Shown here in pieces: positions 7,010-16,000 of a stretch of 16,000 nucleotides of DNA. This stretch comes from Actinobacillus indolicus (lineage in GTDB: Bacteria; Pseudomonadota; Gammaproteobacteria; Enterobacterales; Pasteurellaceae), in contig NZ_CP038145.1 of assembly GCF_004519515.1 (NCBI RefSeq), forward strand, positions 380,770 to 396,769. Reading direction: 5' to 3'. A program made the position numbers and the translations under genes. The notes below the pieces were generated by a model. It was not told where the DNA came from. It did not search any database and was given only the letters and a program-made list of their open reading frames with translations. Each line of letters opens with the position of its first letter. Positions within the stretch are counted from its first letter, which is position 1.

Positions 7010-8164
7010 CTAATTAAGGTATTTTTTTGCTAATTGCGCTAAATAATATGCGGTCGGAAACAACACGGAATCATCTACTTTAAATTTTGGATGGTGAAGC
7101 GCATAAGGCCCGCCAGAACCGATCATAATAAATACGCCTGGAATATGTTTTTGATAGAAAGCAAAATCTTCACCGATAGGGCTTGCTTCAATCAGTTTAG
7201 CATTAAATCCACACTCTGTTGCTGTATCTAGTACAAAATCAATCCATTGTGCCGAGTTAATCACAGAAGGTGGACCTTCATGCCAAATTAGCCCAATCTC
7301 AACTTCAAATGTCTCTGCAATGCCTTGTACTATCGTTTTAAAACGTTGAGCAATTTTCTCTCTAACCTCTGAATTAAAAGTTCTTACTGTGCCTTCTAAA
7401 TAAGCAGAATCTGGAATCACATTCCATGTTGAACCACTATGAATTTGGGTAATAGAAACTACTGCATTTTCTTGAGAAGCAATATTTCGACTAATAATAG
7501 ACTGTATAGCACTAACAAGATGCGCTGAAATCACAATCGGATCTTTGCCATCATGTGGGCGAGCGGCATGAGCACCTTTTGCAGAGATTTTAACCTCAAA
7601 ACGATCCACGCCCGCCGTTAATGCCCCCGCTTTGGTGCCTAAATCCCCAACAGCAAGTGTAGGATCATTATGAATGCCAAATATTAAATCAACATCCTCT
7701 AAAACGTTTGTATTTAGGACATCTACAGCCCCCAGGCCTGTTTCTTCCGCTGCTTGAAATAAAATTCTCACTGTTCCTTTTAAAGTTTCTTGTTGTTGCT
7801 TTAATAAAATAGCAGCTCCAAGTGCGGCAGAAAGATGAAAATCGTGGCCACAAGCATGCATCACTCCAGCATTTAAAGAGCTATACTCTACGCCACTCTC
7901 TTCTAAAATAGGTAATGCATCAATATCTGAACGTAGTGCCAACATTTTACCAGGTTGTCTCCCTTTAATTTCAGCAACTAGCCCCGTTTTTAAGGGTAAA
8001 TCAAGTACTGTAATTTGATACTGTTCTAAAATTTCACGGATTTTAGCTGTGGTCTCAAACTCTTGATTAGATAATTCAGGATATTGATGACGCTCTCGAC
8101 GAAATTGAGTGAGAAAATCAGCGAGAGATTGATGTTCGTGAATGATATTTTGAAAAAAAGACAT
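7010..8164 (-). CDS. M20D-family amidohydrolase (N-acyl-amino-acid deacylase, YxeP/SndA-like)
   Basis: 384 aa. It carries the metal-site motif MHACGHDFH, which is characteristic of the M20D/ILR1/YxeP subfamily, plus GTVRILFQAAEE and HNDP. A strong AGGAG Shine-Dalgarno overlaps the upstream stop codon. The length matches B. subtilis YxeP (about 380 aa). Confidence 0.88.
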   Translation of the reverse strand: MSFFQNIIHEHQSLADFLTQFRRERHQYPELSNQEFETTAKIREILEQYQITVLDLPLKTGLVAEIKGRQPGKMLALRSDIDALPILEESGVEYSSLNAGVMHACGHDFHLSAALGAAILLKQQQETLKGTVRILFQAAEETGLGAVDVLNTNVLEDVDLIFGIHNDPTLAVGDLGTKAGALTAGVDRFEVKISAKGAHAARPHDGKDPIVISAHLVSAIQSIISRNIASQENAVVSITQIHSGSTWNVIPDSAYLEGTVRTFNSEVREKIAQRFKTIVQGIAETFEVEIGLIWHEGPPSVINSAQWIDFVLDTATECGFNAKLIEASPIGEDFAFYQKHIPGVFIMIGSGGPYALHHPKFKVDDSVLFPTAYYLAQLAKKYLN

Positions 8165-8172
8165 AAAAACTC

Positions 8173-9504
8173 CTAAATTTTTTCACTATACGTTTGAATA
8201 AAATTAACCAAATTTATCGGGTGGAAAAACTGGCGAATATCACGAATAAAAGCCATGCTGAGTTCTTGATTTTGCAATGCTGTAACTAGTTTTTGTTCCA
8301 ATTCATCTGAACTATATGGATTCATTGGACTACCTTTGGGATAATTAACTCGGCTTTCTAAACATTTTCCATCCATGAAACCAATTTCAATCTTGGCATA
8401 CCGAGGAAATACTTTATCTTCGATATATTCTCGCGTTATTTTTTGCATCAGTTGAACAGTATCAGAATGAATTAGTTCGGTATTAAAGGCATCAAAACTT
8501 AATGACTCCTTGGCAAGGATTTTTGCCACAATATATTCGGCAGAAAAACGTCCTTGCAATGAAGTCTGAGGATATTTATAGATCAACGCACTATCCGCAT
8601 TTGGATTTATCGTTACCTTGATGTACTGGATTTGCGCTAGATCTAATGTATGCGAAGATACTAAACTGTCAGTGGCATCAGCAATACTCGAAGCAGCGGA
8701 GCAATAACTATAATTTTTGAACCATAATTCGCTTATCTGCCATTTTTGTCCCCAATTAGATAAATCTAATATAGCCTCTGAATTTGCAAAAATAGTGAGG
8801 AATCCTACCGCTTGATCGAGGAAATCCCCCGTTACATTTAACCCCAATTTAAGCCACTCAATCGATTGAATAGCTTGTTGTGCCGCAATGCCTGCGTGTA
8901 ATGCTTTCACAGAACTACCAAAGACTAAACGTAGCCCAGAGGCTTGTGTCGCAGCTAACATAAACGCTTGCTCTAAAAATGGGTACTGATGTAAATAACA
9001 AATTGCAGCGACAGAGGCTATTCCACCAAGGGTTGCCGTTGCATGCCATCCTTTCAAATAGAGCGTAGGATTCACTGCTTTACCTAAACACGCCATCACT
9101 TCCACACCAATAATATACGCAGTAAGAAAACGTCGGCTATCAATAAATTGATGCTGAGTTATATCAATACTGGCAAATAATGCCGATAGAATCACCGCCG
9201 AAGGATGTCCTCGAACGAGTTCATGCACATCATCATTGTCTAGCAGATGAGCTTGAAACCCATTGCATAATGCTGCTTGCTTACTTGTTACATATACTTT
9301 ATGTCCAATTAGCCAGCTCGTTTGGATACCTTGTTCCTGAAGAATCGCTTTTTTCAGTTGCTCAATATCATGCTGATTTGTTGCAGGTAAACTTGAGGCA
9401 AAATAATCTATCACCCCATTTATTGCATAATCTAATACAACATCATCAACAATTAATGGCGTATCCATAATCAACTTACTAAACTGTTGGCTTTTCATAG
9501 ACAT
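8173..9504 (-). CDS. MmgE/PrpD-family protein (YxeQ-like); specific activity unknown
   Basis: 443 aa. Family-typical segments are present (DNDDVHELVRGHPSAVILSALFA, WHATATLGGIASVAA). The start ATG overlaps the ATPase stop (TAATG at 9502-9506). The size matches B. subtilis YxeQ (about 445 aa). Confidence 0.85.
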   Translation of the reverse strand: MSMKSQQFSKLIMDTPLIVDDVVLDYAINGVIDYFASSLPATNQHDIEQLKKAILQEQGIQTSWLIGHKVYVTSKQAALCNGFQAHLLDNDDVHELVRGHPSAVILSALFASIDITQHQFIDSRRFLTAYIIGVEVMACLGKAVNPTLYLKGWHATATLGGIASVAAICYLHQYPFLEQAFMLAATQASGLRLVFGSSVKALHAGIAAQQAIQSIEWLKLGLNVTGDFLDQAVGFLTIFANSEAILDLSNWGQKWQISELWFKNYSYCSAASSIADATDSLVSSHTLDLAQIQYIKVTINPNADSALIYKYPQTSLQGRFSAEYIVAKILAKESLSFDAFNTELIHSDTVQLMQKITREYIEDKVFPRYAKIEIGFMDGKCLESRVNYPKGSPMNPYSSDELEQKLVTALQNQELSMAFIRDIRQFFHPINLVNFIQTYSEKI

Positions 9505-10256
9505 TAAATATAAAACTCGACAGGATCTGAAAATTGACGAACAAAACGTTTAGTTAATTCATGTGTTGGATGATCAATCACGGATTTCGCAGCCCCTTGC
9601 TCTACAATACCGCCATTTGCCATAAAAATAACACGATCCGCCACATTTCTTGCAAACTCTAACTCATGGGTAACAATCACCATGGTAATTTTCTGTTTGG
9701 CTAATAGCTGTATGACTTGCAAAACCTCATTCACTCTTTCAGGGTCAAGTGCTGAGGTTGGCTCATCAAAAAGTAACACTTTCGGCTTAACTGCTAAAGC
9801 TCTCGCAATGGCAACTCGTTGCTGTTGTCCACCCGATAAAGTAACAGGATATTGATGAGCTTGAGGTAATAACCCCACTTGTTTTAATAAAGATAAGCCT
9901 AACTCTTTTGCTTGTTCTTTATCCATTCCTTGAGAAACAATCGGTCCTAATGTGATATTTTCTAAGGCTGTTTTATTTTTAAATAAATTATAGTGTTGGA
10001 ATACCATGGCCGACTGATTTCTCAAGTCACTTTCTTGCTTATGGCTATATTTTTTTGTATCTAATGCAATTTCACCAATAGTAATTCTTCCTGAATTCGG
10101 TTTTTCTAATAAATTTAAACAACGTAATAAAGTAGATTTACCCGAGCCAGATGGACCGATAATGGCTACCACTTCCCCTTCGTTAATGGTTAAATCGATC
10201 TGATTTAATACCGTATTATTTCCAAAAGATTTAGTTAATTTTTCAATATTAATCAT
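9504..10256 (-). CDS. Polar amino-acid ABC transporter, ATP-binding protein
   Basis: 250 aa. Walker A GPSGSGKST, Q-loop, ABC signature LSGGQQQRVAIARAL, Walker B LLFDEPTSALD and H-loop VTHE are all present. Confidence 0.95.
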   Translation of the reverse strand: MINIEKLTKSFGNNTVLNQIDLTINEGEVVAIIGPSGSGKSTLLRCLNLLEKPNSGRITIGEIALDTKKYSHKQESDLRNQSAMVFQHYNLFKNKTALENITLGPIVSQGMDKEQAKELGLSLLKQVGLLPQAHQYPVTLSGGQQQRVAIARALAVKPKVLLFDEPTSALDPERVNEVLQVIQLLAKQKITMVIVTHELEFARNVADRVIFMANGGIVEQGAAKSVIDHPTHELTKRFVRQFSDPVEFYI

Positions 10257-10266
10257 GAGATAATCC

Positions 10267-10938
10267 TTAACGTTTATACGGTTGAGATAACTTATTTTCT
10301 AATACTTTTTGAGCCCAAGAGTAAAGCACCACTACCGCCCAATAGATAATACCTACCGCCAAATAGGTTTCGAAAAAGCGATAAGACTCCACAGTTAATA
10401 ATTTCCCTGCGGCAAGTAATTCAGGTACACCAACAAAGAAAGCAACAGAAGAATCTTTGAGTAAGGAAATAAACATATTCCCCGTACCAGGTAGTGCATT
10501 GACAAACGCCTGCGGTAAAATCACATGTTGATAAATTTTAAAGGTGCTTAGTCCCATTGCACTTCCCGCCTCTTTCTGCCCATGATCCACAGATTCTAAA
10601 CCGGCTCTAAAAATTTCAGCTAAATAAGCGGAATATTTTAAGGTGAAACAAATAATAGCTGCGGTCATTGCTGGCATTTGTACTAAGGTAGGAATAATTT
10701 GAGGCGAACCATAATAGACAATAAAAAGCAACACGACGGAAGGCATACTGCGAAATAACGAAATATAAAGTGCCAATAATTGATCAATACCTTGAATTTT
10801 TTTAACACGAATTAACGCAATCACTAAGCCTAAAATGATCGCAAAAAAGATAGACACTATCGCAATCCACAATGTCGTTGGTAAATACACGATAATTTGA
10901 GGAAAAATTCCTAAAAAATAACCTAAGTCAAAATTCAT
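10267..10938 (-). CDS. Polar amino-acid ABC transporter permease (HisM/HisQ/TcyB type)
   Basis: 223 aa, multi-pass and hydrophobic. It carries the EAA loop EAGSAMGLSTFKIYQHVILPQA. Confidence 0.92.
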   Translation of the reverse strand: MNFDLGYFLGIFPQIIVYLPTTLWIAIVSIFFAIILGLVIALIRVKKIQGIDQLLALYISLFRSMPSVVLLFIVYYGSPQIIPTLVQMPAMTAAIICFTLKYSAYLAEIFRAGLESVDHGQKEAGSAMGLSTFKIYQHVILPQAFVNALPGTGNMFISLLKDSSVAFFVGVPELLAAGKLLTVESYRFFETYLAVGIIYWAVVVLYSWAQKVLENKLSQPYKR

Positions 10939-11054: not shown

Positions 11055-11852
11055 TTATTTGGTAGGTTCTGAAATATCTTCACCATAATATTTCACTGCG
11101 AGTGCTTTAATGGTGCCATTTTCTTTTAATTTAGTGATTGCTTTATCAAACTGTTCTCTCAGTTGGTTACCTTTTTCATTCGGTAAAAATCCATAGCCGA
11201 CCTCTTCAATAACTAATGGTTTTCCAACTAATTTAAAAGGTAAATTTCCACGTTTAATTTCCGCCAATAAAATAGGTTTGGAATTCACATAACCATCAAC
11301 GCGTTTATACACTAAATCGTACATTGCCCCATCACGAGTTTCATAGGTTTTCACATTCACTTCATTGTTTGGAAAGTGTTTCTTCAAATTATTGATATGG
11401 TTAGAACCCAGCACACCCGAAATGGTTTTCCCATGTAAATCGGCATATTCGTTGATATTTTCATTATCTTTATGTGTCACAATTTGGCTACCGTAATAGC
11501 TATAAGGTTGAGTAAAACTATATTTTGCCTTACGGGCTTCTGTGATGGCGACCGCATTTGCGACGGTATCCAATCGACCTGATTCCAACTGCCCCATTAG
11601 TCCAGCAAATTCAGCAGTTGTCCATTCAACACGGTAGCCGAGCTCTTTGGCAATAGCTTCTGTGGTTTCCACATCAAAGCCAACTAATTTCCCATCTTGT
11701 TTAAAGCCATTTGGATAACTTTGCCCTGTACTGCCTACGCGTAGCACCTTTTCAGGTTGACTTGGAGCCACTTGGGTATTTTCACTTTTTTCACATCCTG
11801 CTAAGGCAAGCCCTGATAAAAGTAAGCTGGTAAGAATATATTTCTTAGACAT
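11055..11852 (-). CDS. Amino-acid ABC transporter substrate-binding lipoprotein (cystine/S-substituted cysteine type, YxeM/TcyA-like)
   Basis: I moved the start to the ATG at 11852, which is preceded by AAGGAAA, giving 265 aa. The signal peptide has the lipobox LALAGC. Family-3 binding-protein motifs are present (GFDVE...AEFAGLMGQLESGRLD...ITEARKAKYSFTQPY). The track's longer ORF (to 11918) would overlap the GNAT gene and lacks a ribosome-binding site. Confidence 0.9.
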   Translation of the reverse strand: MSKKYILTSLLLSGLALAGCEKSENTQVAPSQPEKVLRVGSTGQSYPNGFKQDGKLVGFDVETTEAIAKELGYRVEWTTAEFAGLMGQLESGRLDTVANAVAITEARKAKYSFTQPYSYYGSQIVTHKDNENINEYADLHGKTISGVLGSNHINNLKKHFPNNEVNVKTYETRDGAMYDLVYKRVDGYVNSKPILLAEIKRGNLPFKLVGKPLVIEEVGYGFLPNEKGNQLREQFDKAITKLKENGTIKALAVKYYGEDISEPTK

Positions 11853-11886
11853 AATGTTTTCCTTATTTAAAATAAAAATGTTGTGT

Positions 11887-12408
11887 TTACTGAGCTTTTC
11901 GTGTTTGCCACTGCTCAAAAAGCGTTGTATTAATCACTTTTCTAAAATAGATCGTTGTGTGATCATCGGTTAAATTTGCTCGCCCAATTTCGCTAAATCC
12001 CTGATTTATATAAAATTGAGATAACCATGGATGATTCTCTGCGGTGCCTAATGTAACAAAAGGTACTTTAAGTTGTTTTTTCAAAATCGCTTCTTCTAAC
12101 CAAATCAGTAATTTCAATGCATAACCTTGCTTTTTGTAAGTAGGATTTGTGGCAAATAAACCGATATGAGGCACACCAAAAGGGCCAGGATTATTTCCCC
12201 ACGGCAACCGTAGACTGACTGAGCTCACCAGCTTGCCCTCTACAAATAGCCCATACACCAAATTGCTCTCAAGATGGCGTCGAATATCCGACAAGGTCAT
12301 ATTTGAAGCAGCGAAATGAATACCTAATTCAACGACTGGCTTATATGCTGTATGCAACAACTGTTGATAAATTTCCTCTTCCTGTAAGGTAATTTCACGA
12401 AATTCCAT
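11887..12408 (-). CDS. GNAT-family N-acetyltransferase (YxeL/SnaA-like)
   Basis: 173 aa. The acetyl-CoA binding motif A is present (TNPTYKKQGYALKLL, pattern Q-x-x-G-x-A). A GGAG Shine-Dalgarno lies inside the 3' end of the lyase gene, and only 2 nt separate the lyase stop from this ATG. Confidence 0.85.
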   Translation of the reverse strand: MEFREITLQEEEIYQQLLHTAYKPVVELGIHFAASNMTLSDIRRHLESNLVYGLFVEGKLVSSVSLRLPWGNNPGPFGVPHIGLFATNPTYKKQGYALKLLIWLEEAILKKQLKVPFVTLGTAENHPWLSQFYINQGFSEIGRANLTDDHTTIYFRKVINTTLFEQWQTRKAQ

Positions 12409-12410
12409 AT

Positions 12411-13772
12411 TTACTCCAACAGCCCTGAGGATTCGGCAAAATCAACTACTGCATCAACTTTCTCAATCGCAGAACCTAAATAATTATTGGGTTCTAACCA
12501 GTTTGCTAATTCATCAGCACTAATATGTTGAGCCAGCGTAGGATGAGTAACTAAAACATCGTAAAAAGGCTTATTTTGTTCAAAAGCTTGCATCGCTGTT
12601 TCATAAACAAGATGATGTGCGGTCTGTTTACCTAACTGTTTTCCTAACTCAAACATCACTTTTTCCGATAACAACAAGCCTTGTTGCAATACTAAATTTT
12701 TTTGCATCTGTGCTGTATTTACTTTTAAACCACGTAAAATCGCTAATGCAATTTGGAGTTGAGCTGAGAGATAAATATTTAATTCTGGTAAAGCAATCCA
12801 CTCCGCTCGCCAGCTCATTGCATCACGCTCATGTTCTACTCGCATTGATTCATGAATGAGTGCAACACTTTTAAAGACTGGAGAGGTTAAACTTGCTAAA
12901 CCTTCTAAAGCAGCTGGATTGCGTTTATGTGGCATGGTAGAAGAACCAATTTTGCCTTCGCTAAATGGTTCTTCAATTTCATTAATTTCTGTGCGCATGA
13001 GGTTATAAAACTCATTGCCAATTTTGCCTAAAGTGCCACTAATCAATGCGACAACTGAAGCATATTCAGAAAAACGATCCCTTGCAGATTGCCAACTAAT
13101 TAATGGCGTATTTAATCCCAAAATATTCAAGGTGAGAGCTTCAACTTGTGGACCTTTATCACCAAAGGAAGCATAAGTCCCAATCGCACCATTAATATTT
13201 CCGACTAATACCCTTTCCTTTATCTCTTTTAAACGTGTTAAATGGCGAAGAAACTCATCTAACCAGACCGCTAATTTGAAGCCAAATGTGGTAGGTAATG
13301 CTTGCATACCATGCGTTCTCCCAACCATTGGCAAAGCACGATATTGTTTCGCTAGTTTCTTTAACTCTTGAGCTACCAAACGACTATCTCGCTCAATGAT
13401 ATGAAATGCCTCTTTAAGCTGTAATGCTGTTCCAGTATCTACAATATCTTGTGTCGTTGGGCCGTAATGAACAAATTCTCCAGCCTCACCGCATTGAGCT
13501 TGCAAAGTATTGATTGTCGCCATAAATGAATGCTTTAAGCGAGCAATTTCTTGAGAAATCGCCTCTAAATCGAATTGTGCAGGGTCGGCACGCTCTGCAA
13601 TTTTCTGTGCAGCTTCTTTAGGAATTACCCCTAATTCTCCTTCTGCTTTTGCCAAGGCAATTTCAATTGCGACATGTTTTTTAAGACGATTTGTTTCTGA
13701 CCAGACCTCACGCATTTCAGCCGTACCGAAATTATTGCCTAAGGTGAGAAAATCAATGATATGAGATGCCAT
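12411..13772 (-). CDS. Fumarase/aspartase-superfamily lyase of the adenylosuccinate lyase / 3-carboxymuconate cycloisomerase branch; candidate S-(2-succino) lyase
   Basis: 453 aa. All three conserved superfamily regions are present: HYGPTTQDIVDTG, GRTHGMQALPTTFG and the signature loop GSSTMPHKRNP. It is the first gene of the seven-gene operon. Confidence 0.88.
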   Translation of the reverse strand: MASHIIDFLTLGNNFGTAEMREVWSETNRLKKHVAIEIALAKAEGELGVIPKEAAQKIAERADPAQFDLEAISQEIARLKHSFMATINTLQAQCGEAGEFVHYGPTTQDIVDTGTALQLKEAFHIIERDSRLVAQELKKLAKQYRALPMVGRTHGMQALPTTFGFKLAVWLDEFLRHLTRLKEIKERVLVGNINGAIGTYASFGDKGPQVEALTLNILGLNTPLISWQSARDRFSEYASVVALISGTLGKIGNEFYNLMRTEINEIEEPFSEGKIGSSTMPHKRNPAALEGLASLTSPVFKSVALIHESMRVEHERDAMSWRAEWIALPELNIYLSAQLQIALAILRGLKVNTAQMQKNLVLQQGLLLSEKVMFELGKQLGKQTAHHLVYETAMQAFEQNKPFYDVLVTHPTLAQHISADELANWLEPNNYLGSAIEKVDAVVDFAESSGLLE

Positions 13773-13867: not shown

Positions 13868-13912
13868 TATAAAAACAAAAGGCAAATACTAGATACCTAC
13901 TATTTGCCTTTA
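13868..13912 (-). terminator. Rho-independent terminator ending the cysB / secreted-protein transcript
   Basis: 15-bp stem with one mismatch: 13878-13892 (aaaggcaaatactag) pairs with 13897-13911 (ctactatttgccttt), with loop atac. On the - strand the stem is followed by TTTTGTTTTT. Confidence 0.85.
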
Positions 13913-13928
13913 TCAACGCTAGATTAGA

Positions 13929-14569
13929 TTACTTCACAAAATCATCAAACGTCAGTTCGTAATTATCACCATCTCGGCTATAAGAAATATAGCGAGGGAA
14001 TTTCTCCCCTTCGAATTTTTTCACTGTAATATATTTGTTATCGGTTTTAAAACGATAAGTAATTTCTTCATAGCTTTGACCTTTTACTTTTACCGTTTTA
14101 GTTGATTGATTTAGCACGACATTCTCTGTTGGATATAACTTCTTACCATTGGTAGTTTGAAAACTATTGGGTAGTTTGCCGTAATAACTTAACTGAAACG
14201 CCACAGAAAAGAGATCAAAAGTAGGCATAGTCATAGGTTCTTTTTTCAAAGGATCTTTTACTCGACCGTACTGAATCGTTTTTGAATCAATTTCCGCCAT
14301 CGCATAGGTTTTACCGTTACGGGTATCTCGATAGCTCAACATATTAAATTGATTATTACGCTCTTGCCCTTTTGCAGTAAAAACAATGTTATATAAAGGC
14401 ACATTGATTTTAGAGACAATCGAATAACTTTGCCCATTATTTTTAAAATGAACATAAGCAGGCATTAAATAATTTGAGCTATATTTGATGTTAAACTCTT
14501 CCGCCATGGCATTTGTAAAAAGACCGACAGAAGTGACCGCTAGTAATAACGCTTTTTTAAATAATTTCA

Positions 14570-14570
<1 letters not shown>
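13929..14570 (-). CDS. Secreted or periplasmic protein of unknown function, beta-rich (possibly DUF3108-like)
   Basis: 213 aa. Sec signal peptide MKLFKKALLLAVTSVGLFTNAMA, with predicted cleavage AMA/EE. The mature part is rich in Lys, Tyr, Asn and Thr with alternating hydrophobic residues, which is typical of beta-barrel or sandwich folds. A GAGGA Shine-Dalgarno precedes the start, and the ATG overlaps the cysB stop. The family assignment comes from memory of the general pattern only. Confidence 0.6.

Positions 14571-16000
<1,430 letters not shown>

Follow-up and report, generated by a model that had tools for sequence, protein, structure and literature searches.

What does a protein of the MmgE/PrpD fold do in an operon whose other genes point to the breakdown of S-(2-succino)cysteine (2SC)? 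The question is raised by a 16,000-nucleotide stretch of Actinobacillus indolicus DNA (contig NZ_CP038145.1, positions 380,770 to 396,769; hereafter the window, to whose numbering all coordinates refer unless another locus is named). Direct reading of its minus strand gives, at 8173–9504, an open reading frame of 443 amino acids (aa) with an ATG start, whose product is listed by NCBI, at 100% identity, under the name "MmgE/PrpD family protein." On sequence comparison this protein is an orthologue of Bacillus subtilis YxeQ, which is entered as "unknown function" in the description of the 2SC pathway (Hillmann et al., 2022; PMC9706529) and for which the literature searched holds neither an assigned nor a proposed function; the statement of an earlier note on this DNA that YxeQ had no role in the pathway agrees with that paper and with PMC12290011. 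Orthology, fold, residue conservation, and gene linkage together make a C2 epimerase the best-supported reading: the evidence leans modestly toward the YxeQ family being a cofactor-independent, two-base epimerase that would act at the succinyl C2 of 2SC and/or N-acetyl-2SC (2SNAC).

Both domains of the family are present in the window protein at scores above the Pfam gathering cut-off of 32.1 (MmgE_PrpD_N, 120.8 bits, 1e-35; MmgE_PrpD_C, 71.9 bits, 7e-20), and no NCBIfam model matches YxeQ. In a phmmer search of all PDB sequences the best match was 7BRA/7E9D (2e-70), followed by iminodisuccinate (IDS) epimerase (2HP3/2HP0, 1e-39) and, at about 1e-16, the cis-aconitate decarboxylases (CAD); no PrpD chain matched at or below 1e-3, and a BLASTP comparison with E. 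coli PrpD gave E = 0.13. The AlphaFold2 model of the protein (pLDDT 90.1, pTM 0.91) has the two-domain helical and lid fold of 2HP0, and Foldseek ranked its structural relatives in the same order as the sequence search (TM-scores of 0.89 for 7BRA, 0.87–0.88 for 2HP0/2HP3, 0.84–0.86 for CAD, and 0.74–0.84 for PrpD/MmgE). A crude neighbor-joining tree makes IDS epimerase the sister of the YxeQ clade as a whole, with CAD and PrpD outside. The "Bacillus subtilis IRG1" structures 7BRA and 7E9D, which serve as the bacterial model in papers on the itaconate enzyme, are structures of YxeQ, because 7BRA and the product of B. mojavensis yxeQ hardly differ in sequence. B. subtilis YxeQ is 34% identical to the window protein and resembles it in operon type and active-site residues; its operon has the monooxygenase YxeK where the window operon has a lyase.

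The closest characterized enzyme is the IDS epimerase of Agrobacterium tumefaciens BY6, with which the window protein shares its fold and, in a gap-free HMMER alignment to 2HP3, all of the proposed catalytic residues:

H86, window residue aligned with H85 of IDS epimerase
D89, window residue aligned with D88 of IDS epimerase
H100, codon 9205–9207, minus strand (codon checked): aligned with H99 of IDS epimerase, the proposed catalytic base
Y149, codon 9058–9060, minus strand: aligned with Y145 of IDS epimerase, the proposed second base
H154, window residue aligned with H150 of IDS epimerase
K200, window residue aligned with K198 of IDS epimerase
K263, window residue aligned with K266 of IDS epimerase

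The alignment places in the window protein both the carboxylate-binding and enolate-stabilizing residue set and the His/Tyr two-base pair, a pair that has been assigned to the two known epimerases/isomerases of the fold (PMC7347537, PMC12290011). Substrates of MmgE/PrpD enzymes have in common a 1,4-dicarboxylate backbone that is protonated or deprotonated at C2, and the additional catalytic Tyr sets IDS epimerase and (S)-(R)-methylsuccinate isomerase apart from CAD and PrpD (PMC12290011). In the set formed by the window protein and its 80 homologues, each of another species (n = 81), H86, D89, H100, H154, K200, K263, and C268 are invariant (81/81) and Y149 is kept in 79; 18 positions are conserved in YxeQ, 15 of which are common to IDS epimerase, 11 to CAD, and 6 to PrpD. 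The complete IDS epimerase site of B. subtilis IRG1 (bsIRG1) has been noted before (PMC7347537, PMC12290011), the authors of 7BRA calling it "completely conserved" and reporting no activity (PMC7347537). The alignment comparison that the earlier note had proposed accordingly yields the full IDS epimerase set, including a Tyr that is absent from CAD and PrpD.

The titles of 7BRA and 7E9D, which name IRG1, and sources in which homologues are called "2-methylcitrate dehydratase PrpD" would make YxeQ a cis-aconitate decarboxylase or a 2-methylcitrate dehydratase, an identity that is extremely improbable. CAD (IRG1/ACOD1) and PrpD/MmgE resemble YxeQ in fold and in the His/Asp/Lys core that binds the carboxylates, but both are without the Tyr and are much weaker in sequence similarity than IDS epimerase (CAD 1e-16 against 1e-39; PrpD undetected by phmmer). 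At the Tyr149 position human CAD has Met and E. coli PrpD a gap, and the CAD position aligned with Cys268 is His; the CAD residues H277 and Y318 of hIRG1 are not conserved in bsIRG1 (PMC7347537, PMC12290011). No prp or itaconate genes lie nearby, the context being one of sulfur salvage. Both identities were rejected on the grounds of active-site residues, similarity, and context; for PrpD these include the BLASTP value, the want of a PrpD chain within the phmmer threshold, and the absence of prpB and prpC from the window.

The surroundings of the gene agree with its orthology. It is the sixth of seven minus-strand genes that span 13772 to 7010 and are nowhere more than 116 nt apart, in the order 2SL-like lyase, YxeL, YxeM, YxeN, YxeO, YxeQ-like gene, YxeP:

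12411–13772, minus strand: S-(2-succino) lyase (2SL)-like class I lyase, operon gene 1 (Pfam Lyase_1 + ADSL_C)
11887–12408, minus strand: YxeL-like GNAT, 2SC N-acetyltransferase (Pfam GNAT; homologues 48–69% identical follow 2SL in other loci)
11055–11918, minus strand: YxeM-like solute-binding protein (SBP_bac_3)
10267–10938, minus strand: YxeN-like ABC permease (BPD_transp_1)
9504–10256, minus strand: YxeO-like ABC ATPase (ABC_tran)
9502–9506, minus strand: TAATG stop/start overlap from the ABC ATPase gene to the YxeQ-like gene (read from the sequence)
8173–9504, minus strand: YxeQ-family protein of the MmgE/PrpD fold, 443 aa, predicted succinyl-C2 epimerase (Pfam, PDB matches, AlphaFold2)
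7010–8164, minus strand: YxeP/ScmP-like M20 amidohydrolase, N-acetylcysteine deacetylase, last operon gene (Peptidase_M20 + M20_dimer; PMC12757645)

The junction between the ABC ATPase gene and the YxeQ-like gene reads TATTTAATGTCTATG on the minus strand (9510–9496), the TAA of the former (9506–9504) and the ATG of the latter (9504–9502) having one base in common; this coupling, and a single operon shared with the lyase, had been claimed in the earlier note and are borne out by the sequence and the Pfam matches. The ribosome-binding site of the M20 gene in turn overlaps the stop of the YxeQ-like gene (TAGGAGTTTTTATG). The arrangement is not due to chance, because other Pasteurellaceae have their genes in the identical order (L002, L003, L086). 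In gene content the operon corresponds to the B. subtilis-type yxeKLMNOPQ (scm) locus for 2SC breakdown, with a class I lyase in place of YxeK, a variant that has been described (Hillmann et al., 2022; PMC9706529); the B. mojavensis locus that was fetched has the canonical yxeK-L-M-N-O-P-Q order, with its yxeL orthologue in the equivalent position. The nearest relatives of the window protein are the YxeQ proteins of yxe loci, and it stands, as they do, in an operon with YxeL, YxeMNO, YxeP, and a C–S-cleaving enzyme.

In the pathway that these genes specify, 2SC is acetylated by YxeL, and the resulting 2SNAC is cleaved by 2SL to fumarate and N-acetylcysteine; the succinyl part leaves as oxaloacetate where YxeK performs the cleavage and as fumarate where 2SL does (PMC9706529). 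Deacetylation is the task of YxeP/ScmP (for ScmP function see PMC12757645). Orthologues of the window lyase in Brenneria, Samsonia, and Lonsdalea (Pectobacteriaceae) share 74–75% identity with it; they lie in operons of the same type and belong to the same family as the Dickeya 2SL, the enzyme having been characterized in PMC9706529. Public annotation calls the window lyase (12411–13772) "adenylosuccinate lyase," and since it passes the cut-off of the purB model TIGR00928 (392.8 against 326.2 bits), automatic annotation will go on mislabeling it. Its second-best NCBIfam match is XcbD, 3-sulfopropionylcysteine synthase (448.6 bits, below the cut-off of 600), a further C–S bond-forming enzyme of its family.

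When one genome per species was scanned, no fewer than 573 loci encoding YxeQ relatives emerged, spread over Firmicutes, Alpha-, Beta-, and Gammaproteobacteria, Actinobacteria, and Deferribacterales. The best 80 were analyzed, with partner genes counted within 10 kb of the YxeQ homologue; they come from Pasteurellaceae, Orbaceae, Bacillales, Lactobacillales, Limnochordia, Actinobacteria, Deferribacterales, and Alpha-, Beta-, and Gammaproteobacteria. A C–S-cleaving enzyme, either YxeK or 2SL, is present in 74 of these 80 loci, most of which also carry YxeL/M/N/O/P. A YxeK-like monooxygenase (47–100% identical to that of B. mojavensis) occurs in 46 loci, in 27 of which it lies less than 150 bp from yxeQ; a 2SL-like lyase (51–79% identical to the window lyase) occurs in 28; and no locus has both. 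In Gilliamella the yxeQ gene is convergent to the 2SL operon and still adjacent to it, and in the neighbor-joining tree 2SL-linked and YxeK-linked YxeQs are interleaved. The conserved partner of YxeQ is the C–S-cleaving step, whichever enzyme performs it. The earlier note had proposed here a recurring module of a PrpD-fold epimerase with a fumarase-fold lyase; this proves too narrow, since YxeK is the commoner partner. Outside the 80 loci, a 2SL-YxeL-YxeP-YxeQ operon was seen together with a YxeK-like monooxygenase, encoded on the opposite strand, just once, on a metagenome contig (OLPK01000055.1; L090, 6215–13612).

The six loci with neither enzyme, five of them on cut contigs, bear on whether YxeQ might itself be a second C–S lyase, one that would deprotonate C3 and, by a PrpD-like E1cB route, remove the thiol from whichever diastereomer is closed to 2SL or YxeK. 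The fold does include a β-elimination enzyme, 2-methylcitrate dehydratase, and in the survey of 102 yxe loci by Hillmann et al. (2022) 11 had neither yxeK nor 2SL. Yet among the 80 loci just one that lacked both had intact flanks, YxeQ is remote from PrpD (E = 0.13) and keeps the epimerase-marking Tyr that is absent from PrpD, and a B. subtilis yxeK deletion strain in which yxeQ is present does not grow on 2SC (PMC9706529), so that a second lyase is quite improbable. The partnerless locus with intact 10-kb flanks is that of Ureibacillus massiliensis (L026), in which YxeN-YxeO-YxeP-YxeQ are present and no 2SL, YxeK, YxeL, or YxeM homologue was detected nearby; its relative Ureibacillus manganicus (L028) has a full 2SL operon.

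Linkage also says something of the order of events. YxeQ is tied to cleavage and not to acetylation or deacetylation, because it is linked to YxeK or 2SL and because YxeQ, YxeK, and a transporter are all that many proteobacterial loci retain; and it would act before cleavage, because the S-succino substrate is the only dicarboxylate common to both routes. Loci of Methylobacterium, Pseudomonas, Paraburkholderia, Comamonas, and Inquilinus consist of YxeQ, YxeK, and an ABC transporter, without GNAT or M20 genes. In a set assigned to Alpha-, Beta-, and Gammaproteobacteria (L039, L044, L047–L050, L052–L072, L076, L078–L080) the YxeQ homologue adjoins a YxeK-like monooxygenase and a two-permease ABC transporter, and no YxeL acetyltransferase or YxeP deacetylase was found within 10 kb, which suggests a shorter pathway or a non-acetylated substrate.

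These loci, with their different ABC transporter, also fit a narrower departure from the proposed function, in which YxeQ epimerizes C2 of a substituted succinate other than 2SC or 2SNAC, such as another cysteine or thiol adduct of a TCA-derived electrophile (itaconate, mesaconate, aconitate, or maleate), or an S-succino compound brought in by the linked transporter. The active-site set defines only 1,4-dicarboxylate binding and C2 proton exchange, and 2SL is promiscuous toward small thiols (PMC9706529). Against this, 2SNAC was the best 2SL substrate among those tested (PMC9706529), and in Firmicutes, Pasteurellaceae, and Orbaceae the operon neighbors are all assigned to 2SC breakdown; a different physiological substrate is unlikely.

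For YxeQ as an epimerase of 2SC and/or 2SNAC, the following course of events is proposed, with the residues assigned by homology. Lyases of the aspartase/fumarase superfamily are stereospecific, and the C–N lyase that cleaves iminodisuccinate is taken to be a fumarase-superfamily member. Spontaneous addition of a thiol to fumarate would give 2SC in both C2 configurations, of which the C–S-cleaving enzymes (2SL here, YxeK in many other bacteria) would accept only one; if L-aspartate and argininosuccinate are a guide, this one would have the (S) configuration at the succinyl C2. In YxeQ the succinyl carboxylates would be held by His86, Asp89, His154, Arg98, and Thr156, the C2 proton would be removed and returned by His100 on one face and by Tyr149 on the opposite face, and the enolate intermediate would be stabilized by Lys200 and Lys263. 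The diastereomer rejected by the cleavage enzyme would be converted into the accepted one, making the whole pool usable. The epimerase would raise the yield of a pathway that can run without it: loss of yxeQ would halve the yield on racemic substrate, as does loss of the related methylsuccinate isomerase PA0881, and could go unnoticed on plates with excess 2SC.

Several points weigh against this assignment. Residue conservation with IDS epimerase does not by itself fix the substrate, and Y149 is replaced in two of the 81 sequences, namely by Thr/Ala at the equivalent position in the Sporolactobacillus (L065, 10013–11311) and Liquorilactobacillus sucicola (L074, 9770–11101) proteins; both are 2SL-linked and are the most divergent of the 80 homologues (~34% identity). 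That uncatalyzed addition of a thiol to fumarate gives both C2 configurations is a chemical expectation, and literature searches on the diastereomers that make up 2SC brought up nothing relevant. The C2 stereospecificity of 2SL and YxeK is assumed; published 2SL kinetics, for which 2SNAC was prepared with 2SL itself, are compatible with the epimerase reading. No report of a YxeQ activity, biochemical or genetic, including interconversion of C2 stereoisomers, was found in the literature searched.

A further observation on this side comes from a search that started from the lyase. It found complete 2SL-GNAT-solute-binding protein-permease-ATPase-M20 operons, collinear with the window operon, in which no MmgE/PrpD gene lies between the ATPase and M20 genes:

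L084/L085: YxeQ-less 2SL operon
L166, Brenneria roseae: YxeQ-less 2SL operon
L167, Samsonia erythrinae: YxeQ-less 2SL operon
L087 and L088, metagenome contigs: YxeQ-less 2SL operons

The 2SL loci L086, L089, and L090 do contain a yxeQ gene. Because complete operons without the gene exist, YxeQ is dispensable or supplied in trans, and it is accessory to the pathway and not essential to it. The earlier note had presented an epimerase as the logically missing step, which these operons contradict; orthology, fold, residues, and linkage to C–S cleavage speak for its epimerase reading, the specific tie to a lyase and the obligatory step fall, and the function is a prediction. Supply in trans is possible, because Dickeya poaceiphila (L082/L083, 10001–11332) carries, between acnB and lpdA/aceF/aceE and away from any yxe locus, a YxeQ-clade gene whose product has the complete epimerase residue set and is 64% identical to the YxeQ of the L090 2SL operon. 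The Dickeya YxeQ-like protein P0111 had been tried as a pointer to a characterized 2SL locus and was rejected, as its gene adjoins acnB. A metagenome scan with 2SL returned mostly distant adenylosuccinate lyase (ADSL)-like lyases (38–47% identity) that are not 2SL, and only L086–L091 were usable.

The two characterized epimerases of the fold allow the prediction to be placed. The substrate of IDS epimerase, like that predicted for YxeQ, is a succinate with a heteroatom at C2; the heteroatom is N and the other half a second succinate in the former, whereas they would be S and (N-acetyl)cysteine in the latter. Identity with the window protein is only 24–29%, and three positions conserved in YxeQ differ in IDS epimerase (Y265/W, R319/K, and Y324/A). 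Surveys show IDS epimerase as an isolated sequence (PMC12290011), whereas YxeQ is widespread, with at least 573 loci. The methylsuccinate isomerase Msi (PA0881) has the MmgE/PrpD fold and a His/Tyr two-base site (PMC12290011) and racemizes C2 of a substituted succinate for a stereoselective downstream enzyme (PMC12290011, PMC9875883); deletion of PA0881 halved the final optical density on racemic methylsuccinate (PMC9875883). Unlike YxeQ, Msi acts on a carbon substituent and in a carbon-catabolic context, the itaconate/methylsuccinate cluster.

YxeQ may be the S-succino member (2SC/2SNAC) of a general class of MmgE/PrpD-fold enzymes, with iminodisuccinate as the N and methylsuccinate as the C representative, recruited wherever a stereo-random succinyl adduct meets a stereospecific enzyme, be it a lyase, a monooxygenase, or a CoA-transferase; this broader proposal is tentative, its chances falling a little short of even. 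There is a hint that MmgE/PrpD genes recur beside other ADSL-like lyases, in three loci where a lyase with 43–47% identity to 2SL is accompanied by an MmgE/PrpD protein that matches IDS epimerase best:

L097, 96–1454 and 6306–7670: ADSL-like lyase and MmgE/PrpD gene, about 5 kb apart
L098, 1312–4048: ADSL-like lyase and MmgE/PrpD gene, adjacent
L099, 4000–6974: ADSL-like lyase and MmgE/PrpD gene, adjacent

Their contexts are otherwise unrelated (a TctA transporter with two dehydrogenases, or a Liv-type ABC system). L098 retains the Tyr, for which L099 has Phe and L097 has His; two of the three may not be epimerases because of these replacements.

If the epimerase assignment is true, yxeQ, the one gene of the yxe/scm 2SC-salvage locus that is still unassigned, and a widespread one (at least 573 loci), gains a function, and the crystal structure 7BRA, now used as a bacterial CAD model, would be re-annotated. 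S-succino compounds would become a third substrate class for epimerases of the MmgE/PrpD fold, in a family and with a structure that were already known, and the repair of a spontaneous, stereo-random damage product would be seen to need, or to gain from, a dedicated epimerase. 2SL has been proposed as a biocatalyst for adding or removing S-succino groups, and its combination with the epimerase could give full conversion of chemically succinated material. Should the general class also hold, stereochemical correction would be a step in metabolite-damage repair, and functions could be predicted for MmgE/PrpD genes beside ADSL-like lyases such as those of L097–L099.

Some lesser features of the window concern the operon and its boundaries. 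The TTG listed as the start of the YxeM-like gene probably lies too far 5′; a signal-peptide-like sequence follows an ATG at 11852. A scan of the window for promoters and terminators gave fewer hits than in shuffled sequence, and the terminator scan passed over the following feature because its loop exceeds 8 nt:

13871–13908, minus strand: hairpin GGCAAATA...TATTTGCC followed by a T-run, 5′ of the operon (read from the sequence)

This hairpin is likely the terminator of the preceding gene and would set the 5′ boundary of the operon. The gene in question (13929–14570, minus strand), with the hairpin and T-run downstream of it, encodes a 213-aa protein with a signal-peptide-like N-terminus, for which no Pfam or NCBIfam match and no homologue among the fetched loci were found. 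Its start overlaps the stop of an upstream gene for a CysB-like LysR regulator (14570–15607), which lies 5′ of the 2SL operon and is oriented as the operon is. In Zophobihabitans entericus, too, a homologue 53% identical to it (L008, 3044–4024) lies upstream of the 2SL operon, and the CysB-like protein may be a sulfur-responsive regulator of the 2SL operon.

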